Shown here: positions 38,372 to 39,834 of the stretch, in pieces | Layout of the letters: the number at the start of each line of letters is the position of its first letter | Position numbering within the stretch: position 1 is the stretch's first letter | Source: a virus | Taxonomy: Duplodnaviria; Caudoviricetes | DNA length: 64,000 nucleotides | Virus record (IMG/VR): IMGVR_UViG_3300014208_000024 | Location: 1-64,000 of that record | Direction: 5' to 3' (one strand) | The notes under the pieces: model-generated | What the model was told of the DNA's origin: nothing | The model's database searches: none | What the model saw: the letters and a program-made list of their open reading frames with translations, nothing else | Position numbers and translations under genes: made by a program

Positions 38372-39100
38372 ATGGAAACTAAAATATGCTCTAAATGCCA
38401 TGTTGAAAAACCTAATGATGAAGATTATTTTCCTAAAAGGAATAATAAGCTTGAATATAGATGTAAATCATGTCGTAAAGAATATTACGATATATGGAAA
38501 TTTAATAATGCAGAAGCTAAAAAACAATATGATAAAGATTATAGAGCTAAAAATTATGATAAACTTAAAAAATACACAAACGAATATAATGAAAATTTTC
38601 TATATAAGAACGGTGTAAAACGCCATACAAAATACTGGCAAAACAACAAAGAAAAAATAAAAACAAGAAGAGAGAAAAACAGAAATAATGAAAATATATT
38701 AAGGAACAAAAAAAGGAATGAGAGGCGAAAAGTTGACCCATTATTTAATCTACAAGAAAAAATAAGAACAAAACTTAACAAATTGTTTAAAAACAATGGA
38801 TATAAGAAAAACAAAAAAACAATTGATGTTATTGGATGTTCGTTTAAAAATCTAAAACTATATATAGAATCTAAATTTGAATCTTGGATGAATTGGGAAA
38901 ATCACGGATTATATAATGGACAGTTATATTATGGTTGGGACATAGACCATGTTATTCCATTGTGTACTGCTAAAACAGAAGAAGAATCTTTAAAATTATG
39001 GTATTATACAAATCTCCAACCTCTTTGCAGTAAAATAAATAGAGATATTAAAAAGGATAAAATTAATTTTAACTGTGCAGCAATTTTAAATTTCCCTTAA
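38372..39100 (+). CDS. HNH-like homing endonuclease
   Basis: WDIDHVIPL...YTNLQPLCS. Confidence 0.85.
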   Translation: METKICSKCHVEKPNDEDYFPKRNNKLEYRCKSCRKEYYDIWKFNNAEAKKQYDKDYRAKNYDKLKKYTNEYNENFLYKNGVKRHTKYWQNNKEKIKTRREKNRNNENILRNKKRNERRKVDPLFNLQEKIRTKLNKLFKNNGYKKNKKTIDVIGCSFKNLKLYIESKFESWMNWENHGLYNGQLYYGWDIDHVIPLCTAKTEEESLKLWYYTNLQPLCSKINRDIKKDKINFNCAAILNFP

Positions 39101-39753
39101 ACACCTGTTTAAGGCTTGCTTTTTTCCCTGTTATATGGTCATGTACCAAATCGCTTTTAAAAGTATACATTCTTCTTTTATCTCCCCTAAATCCAGTTCC
39201 AATCTGTTCTTTTCTTTCTCTATGCTCTTTTTCTTTTTTATTAGAATCATATAGTTTTTGTACCCTTCTTGTCAATTCTTTTAGGGCAATTTCTTTGTTT
39301 TTTAGTTGACTTCTATCTTCATCACATCTTACTACCAGTCCAGTGGGAACATGCTTTAAATTCACACAAGAATAGGTGCGATTTCTTGCTTGTCCACCTG
39401 GACCTGTCCCATTTGTGATTTTAATTTCCACATCACTATCCTTTAGTTGGATTTTTACTTGTTGCCCAGGCTCCATTACAGCCACAGTGACTGAACTAGT
39501 GTGAACTCTGCCTTTTGATTCTGTTGGTGGAACACGACTAAACGTATGACCTCCAGCTTCATTTGAAAAGAATTTTTTTACGCCAGCACCGCTAAAGACA
39601 TAAAGAAATACATCCATCTTTCTCTTCTAAAGTAGAGATGGAAAAATTTTCAACCCTGGCCGCTTTTCTATAAACATCAGCCAAATCTTTTGCAAGAAGT
39701 TTTGAATCCATTCCTCCTTCTGCTGCACGAATTTCACAAATAATTGTTTCCAT
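39069..39753 (-). CDS. RF1-like class I release factor with +1 programmed frameshift at CTT-TAG-C (39597-39591)
   Basis: Frame 0 METIICEIRAAEGG...SLCL*; +1 frame SGAG...RVPPTESKGRVHTS...GPGGQ. Confidence 0.85.
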
Positions 39754-39834
39754 AAGTTTTGGTTTTTGATAAATATACGAAAATTTTTCTTAAAAGATAC
39801 AGTTTTTTCAACTATTTATTAAAAATATTTATAT

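Follow-up and report, generated by a model that had tools for sequence, protein, structure and literature searches.

A candidate prfB-type +1 frameshift at CTT-TAG-C in the RF1-type release-factor gene of a groundwater phage

The release-factor gene and its frame break

The stretch of DNA analysed here, referred to below as the window, comprises the first 64 kb (64,000 nucleotides, nt) of the IMG/VR virus record IMGVR_UViG_3300014208_000024 (Caudoviricetes), a groundwater genome of 372,283 bp and 28.7% GC, which is rated complete (G000 in our collection). On its minus strand lies the only gene of this genome that encodes a release-factor domain. This gene is related to bacterial release factor 1 (RF1) and is divided between two overlapping open reading frames (ORFs; Table 1). 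The original prediction described a 53-codon frame that ends with CTT-TAG-C and is continued in the +1 frame up to the GGQ motif; our analysis confirmed this arrangement on the minus strand, from the ATG at 39753 to the TAA at 39071-39069, and the sequence comparisons presented below make a programmed +1 frameshift at CTT-TAG-C very likely. As to the span proposed earlier for the gene, 39069-39801, its lower limit is correct, while the upper one takes in 48 nt of upstream non-coding DNA.

The codons leading to the break are ATT TCT TTA TGT CTT TAG C, with TGT preceding CTT, and the +1 frame is open from 33 nt upstream of the TAG down to the TAA. If CTT is read and one T is skipped, decoding resumes with AGC GGT, which gives ...SLCL/SGAGV... 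around the junction (slash) and a joined protein of 227 amino acids (aa); the junction peptide to be expected from the joined product is ...SLCLSGAGVK, its tryptic form being ...DGCISLCLSGAGVK. Reading through the UAG without a shift would lead only to a dead-end product of 64 aa. An extension of the gene at the N-terminus is impossible, because a frame-0 stop is located 12 codons 5' of ATG 39753 and the next upstream gene is divergent. Since the window's genome uses the standard code, with long ORFs ending in TAA (84%), TGA (8.6%) and TAG (7.2%), TAG is a genuine stop codon in this phage. The CTTTAGC heptamer by itself is not rare (nine copies in the window, 5.6 expected), and the weight therefore rests on its coincidence with the break in homology and on its conservation in relatives. 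Scanning for promoters and terminators around the gene revealed nothing above the shuffled expectation.

Homology to release factors runs across the break. The Pfam model PCRF is matched at its positions 101-144 by ORF1 alone and 158-194 by ORF2 alone, and at 101-194 without interruption by the joined protein (E 6e-18), in which it is followed by a match to positions 2-115 of the RF-1 model (E 2e-27); as the PCRF match is continuous only in the joined protein, the break is internal to a single domain. When compared with solved structures, the joined protein aligned with residues 88-313 of Thermotoga RF1 (E 2e-38), the junction (...islc/lsgagv...) being ungapped. In an AlphaFold model built from a 30-sequence alignment (mean predicted local distance difference test score, pLDDT, 86.9) a single beta-strand, residues 48-55, crosses the junction, and the best structural match is ribosome-bound RF1 of T. 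thermophilus with a template modelling (TM) score of 0.89, RF2 being slightly worse.

The earlier assignment to the RF1 type, with its PxT specificity motif, holds: among the NCBIfam models RF1 scores highest (200 bits, covering positions 105-333 of the 347 in the model), followed by RF2 (130), PrfH (67) and ArfB (32), and both PPT and GGQ are present. The equivalog cut-offs for RF1 were missed (NF001859, 200 vs 400 bits; TIGR00019, 192 vs 423), and, judged by its sequence, the window gene is an RF1-derived paralogue, not an orthologous prfA. Domain 1, the part contacting RF3 and the L11 stalk, is absent as had been predicted, the RF1 matches beginning at model positions 105 of 347 and 113 of 361. 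By homology and by the structural model, the product is thus composed of RF1 domains 2-4 with PPT and GGQ and without domain 1. The missing domain predicts independence from RF3, and we probably deal here with a natural domain-1-less, RF3-independent release factor; a passage of PMC1586002 summarises the work of Mora et al. (2003), who reported that a truncated RF1 is still active in codon-specific release.

A role in ribosome rescue, which had been proposed on the basis of a basic tail, found no support. The lysine-rich stretch corresponds to the normal long RF1 helix and the C-terminus to the normal end of domain 4, and no ArfB-like tail is present; the match to ArfB/ICT1 is marginal (34 residues, 32 bits vs a cut-off of 100), and the window protein possesses the codon-recognition domain. 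PrfH (RF-H, the RtcB-paired paralogue) is similar in lacking domain 1 and in keeping a codon-recognition-like domain together with GGQ. However, it has no PxT motif, the recognition loop of the window protein being RF1-like, and it matches the window protein poorly both in sequence (TIGR03072, 67 bits vs a cut-off of 167) and in structure (TM 0.62).

Table 1. Coordinates of the release-factor gene, its motifs and the suppressor-like tRNA genes
Feature	Positions	Strand	Description
ORF1, frame 0	39595..39753	minus	53 codons, from ATG 39753 to the Leu codon CTT (39597-39595)
ORF1 content			First strand and helix alpha-5 of release-factor domain 2 (basis: PCRF positions 101-144); EGGMDS tip motif at 39720-39703
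Shift heptamer CTT TAG C	39591..39597	minus	CUU in the P site, UAG (39594-39592) in the A site, C as the +4 base
ORF2, +1 frame	39072..39593	minus	From AGC (Ser54) to the last sense codon; rest of domain 2 and domains 3 and 4
PPT, residues 75-77	39522..39530	minus	RF1-type PxT 'anticodon' motif; aligns to PVT in RF1
GGQ, residues 119-121	39390..39398	minus	Peptidyl-tRNA hydrolysis motif; invariant in the alignment of relatives
Frame-0 continuation past TAG	39559..39591	minus	10 codons, then TGA (39561-39559)
ATG in the +1 frame	39615..39617	minus	24 nt upstream of the shift; start chosen by gene callers for a 182-aa ORF; not conserved
tRNA(UUA), ochre-suppressor-like	33634-33706	minus	In the window; normal cloverleaf, 7-nt anticodon loop
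Two tRNA(CUA), amber-suppressor-like	74251-74324, 75335-75409	minus	In G000 outside the window; normal cloverleaves, 7-nt loops

The shift site and early stop codons among relatives

A search of 5.8 billion proteins brought up many relatives with 47-80% identity to the product that are annotated as fragments of about 180 aa, and more distant ones annotated as continuous proteins of about 225 aa. For the comparison at the DNA level we used 240 relatives from IMG/VR and metagenomes, plus six loci (five distinct) of closer relatives (loci and genomes are denoted below by L and G numbers). The IMG/VR relatives were obtained by alignment-based scans; a scan of IMG/VR with the single protein retrieved zero relatives. 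In each relative the frame of the N-terminal EGGxD motif was compared with that of the PxT motif, and 160 distinct genes could be classed: 97 are in a single frame, 63 need a +1 shift and none needs a -1 shift. The window's own site, lying 126 nt after the EGG motif, is designated site B, and a second one, 78 nt after EGG, site A.

Site B is present in nine of the 160 distinct genes; together with the closer relatives it is represented by 14 distinct sequences, including the window. All distinct site-B sequences share TGY CTT TAG CGG, the exception being L229 with its TGA, and of the nine distinct site-B genes first tallied eight use TAG. That CTTTAG would be kept in homologues is borne out: the nearest ones (63-82% identity) are not continuous and break at the same codon. 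The relatives with site B originate from different samples and assemblers and are 45-82% identical at the protein level (about 45-50% for the distant ones); their ORF1 of 53-54 codons is conserved as a protein and ends with (E/D)G..SLCL. Despite the AT-rich genomes, the P-site codon is CTT in each of the nine site-B and 53 site-A genes (62/62), an invariance which we ascribe to the re-pairing from CUU to UUU, since this requires CTT. In 9/9 site-B genes the stop is followed by C, which in this position is the weakest context for termination. Contigs of a second, independent groundwater study cover the gene in part, with 39558-39593 unbridged, and neither confirm nor contradict the site.

Site A was found in 53 distinct genes, mostly of GC-richer phages. 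Upstream of it a Shine-Dalgarno (SD)-like pentamer occurs in 42 of the 53 genes, and in 32 of them GGAGG stands exactly 3 nt before CTT. The same spacing has been described in prfB: there, the SD element has its 3' end 6 nt before the stop (PMC10732093). The stop codon with its next base is TGAC in 24 genes, TAGC in 11, TGAG in eight, TAAC in four, TGAA in four and another combination in two. A GGAGG-spaced CTT-TGA-C site was also observed in a published 485-kb huge-phage genome (LR745208.1; L350, 63168-64422), where the recognition loop is RTSNGR, without a PxT tripeptide.

The relatives with an unbroken frame also carry early stop codons. Our analysis revealed one or two in-frame TGA in 84 of the 97 single-frame genes, and a few such genes have TAG. 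These codons occur exclusively 75-81, 96 and 117-120 nt past EGG; the first of the three places corresponds to a conserved Trp of RF1, and the last lies one codon before the Leu-Ser junction of the window. In these genes the early positions hold 106 TGA vs 1 TGG, and the later Trp positions 0 TGA vs 146 TGG. Examples of in-frame TGA are found among L001-L080 and others (L001, L005, L041) and in the deposited phage record LR745206.1 (L351). In-frame TAG without a frameshift is seen in L007, L023 and L094 (120 nt after EGG, plus TGA at +96), as well as in L022 and L039; in three relatives with in-frame TAG, this codon occupies the place of the TGA of other members. The record of L006 (G009, a 362-kb phage) contains, 3 kb from the main release-factor gene, another RF-1-domain match, which is shorter and has a TAA inside it (51923-52204, minus strand).

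The genetic code was tested, in the window and genome-wide, by ORF coverage, stop usage and pairs of ORFs in the same frame; as the coverage and pair tests are too noisy for a code call on the short flanks of the loci, genomes were fetched whole instead. In three of these with an in-frame TGA in the gene, G002, G006 and G007, both ORF coverage and stop usage conform to the standard code and tRNA(UCA) is missing, which indicates that the in-frame stops are specific to the gene and do not reflect recoding of the genome. The early in-frame TGA codons look like gene-specific read-through gates. In G002 (L052) an in-frame TGA occurs together with the CTT-TAG-C shift. Early stops are missing from no more than one to three short-form genes of the sample; the full-length bacterial-type RF1 genes met in the scans (eight or nine) have none, and mostly carry TGG at the first Trp position.

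A FastTree phylogeny placed the window together with L081 and L229 and showed site-B genes scattered among those with in-frame TGA, so that well-supported branches force at least four origins of the site. The type of the stop changes at least about 10 times on the tree, and that at site A changes many times. Judging from a comparison of TGA CTA AGC with TGT CTT TAG C, the window's site seems to have arisen by insertion of one base beside a former TGA gate. For the family as a whole, we lean slightly towards a general rule, according to which nearly all domain-1-less RF1-type factors of phages, which were met mostly in huge phages, carry an early stop-codon checkpoint that has to be bypassed. 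Within the sample, such checkpoints would take the form of a +1 shift, located at either of two non-homologous sites and on CUU-UAG, CUU-UGA or CUU-UAA, or of read-through of a gene-specific in-frame UGA or UAG in genomes with the standard code. The repeated interconversion of these forms implies, under the family-wide reading, that the gate itself is the selected feature.

Proposed mechanism and competing explanations

For the window's gene we propose the following course of events, in which the slippage itself, the efficiency of the shift and its dependence on RF1 are inferred, as is the codon specificity of the product. After translation of the 53 codons of ORF1, peptidyl-tRNA-Leu would stand on CUU in the P site, with UAG-C in the A site. 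Quick termination at UAG would release a 53-aa fragment; in the case of slow termination, tRNA-Leu would re-pair on UUU, the A site would read AGC (Ser) and the remaining 173 codons would be translated. The output of full-length protein would hence go up when UAG-reading (RF1-type) activity is scarce and down when it is plentiful. This activity would include the product itself, provided that it reads UAG, as predicted from PxT, which would close a negative feedback loop, and the phage would gain a self-limiting supplement of UAA/UAG termination capacity. Based on the sequence evidence, we consider it probable that the gene encodes a domain-1-less RF1-type factor whose full-length synthesis needs a prfB-type programmed +1 frameshift, with an efficiency set by slow UAG termination; the RF1-type self-feedback, taken separately, is plausible, with the balance tilted a little in its favour.

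Several observations weigh against this scheme, mostly against its feedback part. An SD-like stimulator was found in 0/9 site-B genes, and RNAalifold revealed no conserved RNA structure in 13 site-B sequences. L229, which belongs to the window's own small clade and has an identical recognition loop, carries TGA at the same site, and the 53 site-A stops (36 TGA, 13 TAG and four TAA) vary without a covarying change in this loop. When covariation between the gate codon and the protein was analysed, the sole discriminating column proved to be the residue encoded by the shifted codon itself. The window protein differs from canonical RF1 in having Ser72 in place of Gln and Asp16 in place of Glu. The Gln replaced by Ser72 is presumably the residue which, in RF1-ribosome structures, contacts the third base of the stop codon; with Ser in its place, it is not certain from the sequence that the window protein reads UAG. 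Finally, the two tRNA(CUA) of the phage, if they are active suppressors, would compete at the same UAG and direct translation to the dead-end product. Anyway, of the original proposal that the stop codon and the specificity motif are both of the RF1 type and form a sensor of UAG termination, the first part stands for the window, where UAG matches PxT. However, relatives with the same loop carry TGA or TAA, which means that the gate codon is not tied to the factor's own specificity motif, and strict self-regulation is weakened accordingly. According to a bolder variant, a factor of the PPT/Asp type may read all three stop codons, and each type of gate would then be truly autoregulatory.

Another possibility, which we regard as rather unlikely, retains the programmed +1 shift but treats the gate as a general reporter of the host termination capacity or of the infection stage. 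In this case the gate could respond to whichever host release factor is limiting, or to competition with the amber-suppressor-like tRNAs of the phage, and the product may not act on the gate codon at all. This explanation fits the pattern observed in the family at least as well as self-feedback does: TGA, TAG and TAA alternate among relatives with the same PPT loop, with at least the approximately 10 switches mentioned above; most of the unbroken relatives (84/97) have in-frame TGA at early positions only, in G002, G006 and G007 under the standard code and without tRNA(UCA); and tRNA(CUA) genes are present in G000, G001, G004 and G008 (they are absent from G002, G006 and G007). The genes of the window's phage mostly end with UAA. 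What speaks for the self-feedback scheme is that the UAG of the window matches the RF1-type motif, which makes self-feedback the simplest explanation, and that TAG predominates among the site-B genes first tallied (8/9).

It is very improbable that the frame is changed not by slippage of the P-site tRNA-Leu but by a phage tRNA(CUA), either through quadruplet decoding of UAGC or through suppression of UAG. The phage does have two tRNA(CUA) genes, similar ones exist in two other phages with site B, and reading of TAGC in one step would lead to a protein of the same length. However, both tRNAs have ordinary 7-nt anticodon loops, and G002 possesses the same site and no tRNA(CUA). The presence of CTT before the stop in all 62 genes is explained by slippage, not by quadruplet reading, and suppression of UAG as a triplet meets a stop 10 codons further on.

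Equally improbable in our view is the synthesis of two polypeptides, the 53-aa peptide of ORF1 and a 182-aa protein starting at the ATG 39617 of ORF2, acting apart or as a split factor. The presence of this +1-frame ATG, 24 nt ahead of the site, and the annotation of 182-aa proteins in many relatives, agree with such a model. Nevertheless, no ATG, GTG or TTG was found in the +1 frame upstream of the site in L242/L243, L229, L083, L096 and L162, so initiation at 39617 is not a conserved feature, and the independent start considered in the original prediction is not upheld. Besides, the break would divide a beta-strand of domain 2 at its middle, ORF2 alone would be devoid of the alpha-5 element that reads the first base of the stop codon, and the conserved CTT-stop-C heptamer would be left unexplained. 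As for a sequencing or assembly indel or a decaying pseudogene, which a single-base frame break in a metagenome assembly, not bridged by the independent groundwater contigs, might bring to mind, it is effectively refuted by the conservation of the break across relatives, the same break and heptamer being shared by at least 13 distinct sequences that are 45-82% identical as proteins and come from independent samples and assemblers, with both halves conserved at the protein level.

Genome context, known systems and significance

The genome of the window's phage has 46 tRNA genes, 35 of which are located in the window (1803-51498), all on the minus strand and in several arrays. One of those in the window, tRNA-Leu(AAG), would form Watson-Crick pairs with the CUU of the shift site. 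ARAGORN also reported a tRNA-like gene at 76998-77067 (minus strand) of G000, with a two-base 'anticodon' (tc) and a 6-nt loop, which is maybe an artefact or an unusual tRNA. An apparent TAG read-through ORF of 708 aa (19357-21483) was rejected, being in fact two genes and an intergenic stretch.

The gene located divergently upstream of the release-factor gene (39835-40992, plus strand) encodes a DUF6926 protein and is also found in the relative L245 (61-681; about 70% identity). In relatives the DUF6926 gene is kept upstream, and a KTSC gene, missing in the window, is often situated just downstream. From the other side, an ORF of 242 aa (38372-39100, plus strand) converges on the release-factor gene and overlaps its last 32 nt; an HNH-like motif is discernible in it by eye (DIDHVIPL ... 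N..PLC ... N), and it has no Pfam match. A terminator-like hairpin lies at 39095-39114 (plus strand). In two relatives a neighbouring gene contains a Por_Secre_tail domain, which hints at Bacteroidota hosts, and such hosts would fit the lack of SD elements at site B.

Among known systems, the regulation of prfB, encoding RF2, is the closest counterpart: in both cases CUU stands in the P site, a stop codon in the A site and C at +4, the shift is in the +1 direction and the product is a class I release factor; in 32 of the 53 site-A relatives the likeness extends to GGAGG with a 3-nt spacer. In contrast to prfB, the window factor is of the RF1 type (PxT), its stop is UAG, it has no SD element and it is encoded by a phage. 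Moreover, the window site falls in domain 2, at codon 53/54, and that of prfB at codon 25/26 in domain 1, which is absent here; hence neither the window position nor that of site A is homologous to the prfB site. Considering these features of the sequence together, it is very likely that the site is the RF1 counterpart of the classic RF2 (prfB) frameshift, in a phage, reinvented at two positions and conserved. Among 8,164 frameshift motifs of bacterial prfB genes there was no TAG, no programmed shift in prfA was found in 12,753 genomes, and the authors of this 2025 survey argue that only RF2 needs frameshift control (PMC12421855); earlier, a UAG/RF1 counterpart of the RF2 frameshift had been stated as unknown in a review (Atkins et al., 2016; PMC5009743). 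In the literature we searched, no description of a frameshift in a phage release-factor gene was found.

Two further systems deserve comparison. The eukaryotic antizyme is similar in that a +1 shift at a codon beside a stop makes the gene both sensor and effector of a feedback loop; it differs in sensing polyamines, in its stimulators and in the organisms concerned. A giant virus of amoebae is the other case, its release factor reportedly being of the eukaryotic/archaeal type. The gene is expressed via stop-codon read-through and frameshifting, as mentioned in a citing passage of Atkins et al. (2016; PMC5009743, ref. 349). There, too, a viral release-factor gene needs recoding at stops, and G002/L052, with its in-frame TGA and frameshift, may be compared to it. 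Unlike that gene, the window gene encodes a bacterial-type RF1 in tailed-phage-like huge phages, and the types of the sites differ.

No close homologue from a cultured phage was found among the deposited phage records. The best matches among these are unannotated 'uncultured phage' assemblies of 485-735 kb (LR745206, LR745208), which we take to be the huge-phage assemblies of Al-Shayeb and Borges; RF1-like matches with 32-39% identity were also observed in Listeria, Staphylococcus and Enterococcus 'phage' records. The presence of RF1 and RF2 in huge phages has been reported (Al-Shayeb, 2020; PMC7162821), and RF1 was noted in TGA-recoded phages (Borges, 2021 preprint; 10.1101/2021.08.26.457843); the frameshift, the in-frame stops and the missing domain 1 are mentioned in neither of these two works. 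The gene family is broadly the same, but the RF1 reported there belongs to TGA-recoded phages, whereas the code is the standard one in the window's phage and in the others examined.

So far, frameshift feedback has been a textbook feature of RF2 alone, and the RF1-type gene of the window would possess the same device. It offers a natural test of whether CUU-stop-C works with UAG and without an SD stimulator. The domain-1-less and probably RF3-independent factor may be of interest for cell-free translation and genetic-code engineering. As to annotation, gene callers render such genes as truncated fragments of about 180 aa or as code 4 translations. In general, the locus gives a new angle on the management of termination in huge phages, beside their suppressor-like tRNAs. 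The idea that release-factor genes might be built for read-through dates back decades, and to our knowledge no such design has ever been found in bacteria. If the family-wide gate is true, these phages would carry a sensor of the host termination capacity, and this sensor would include such a read-through design.

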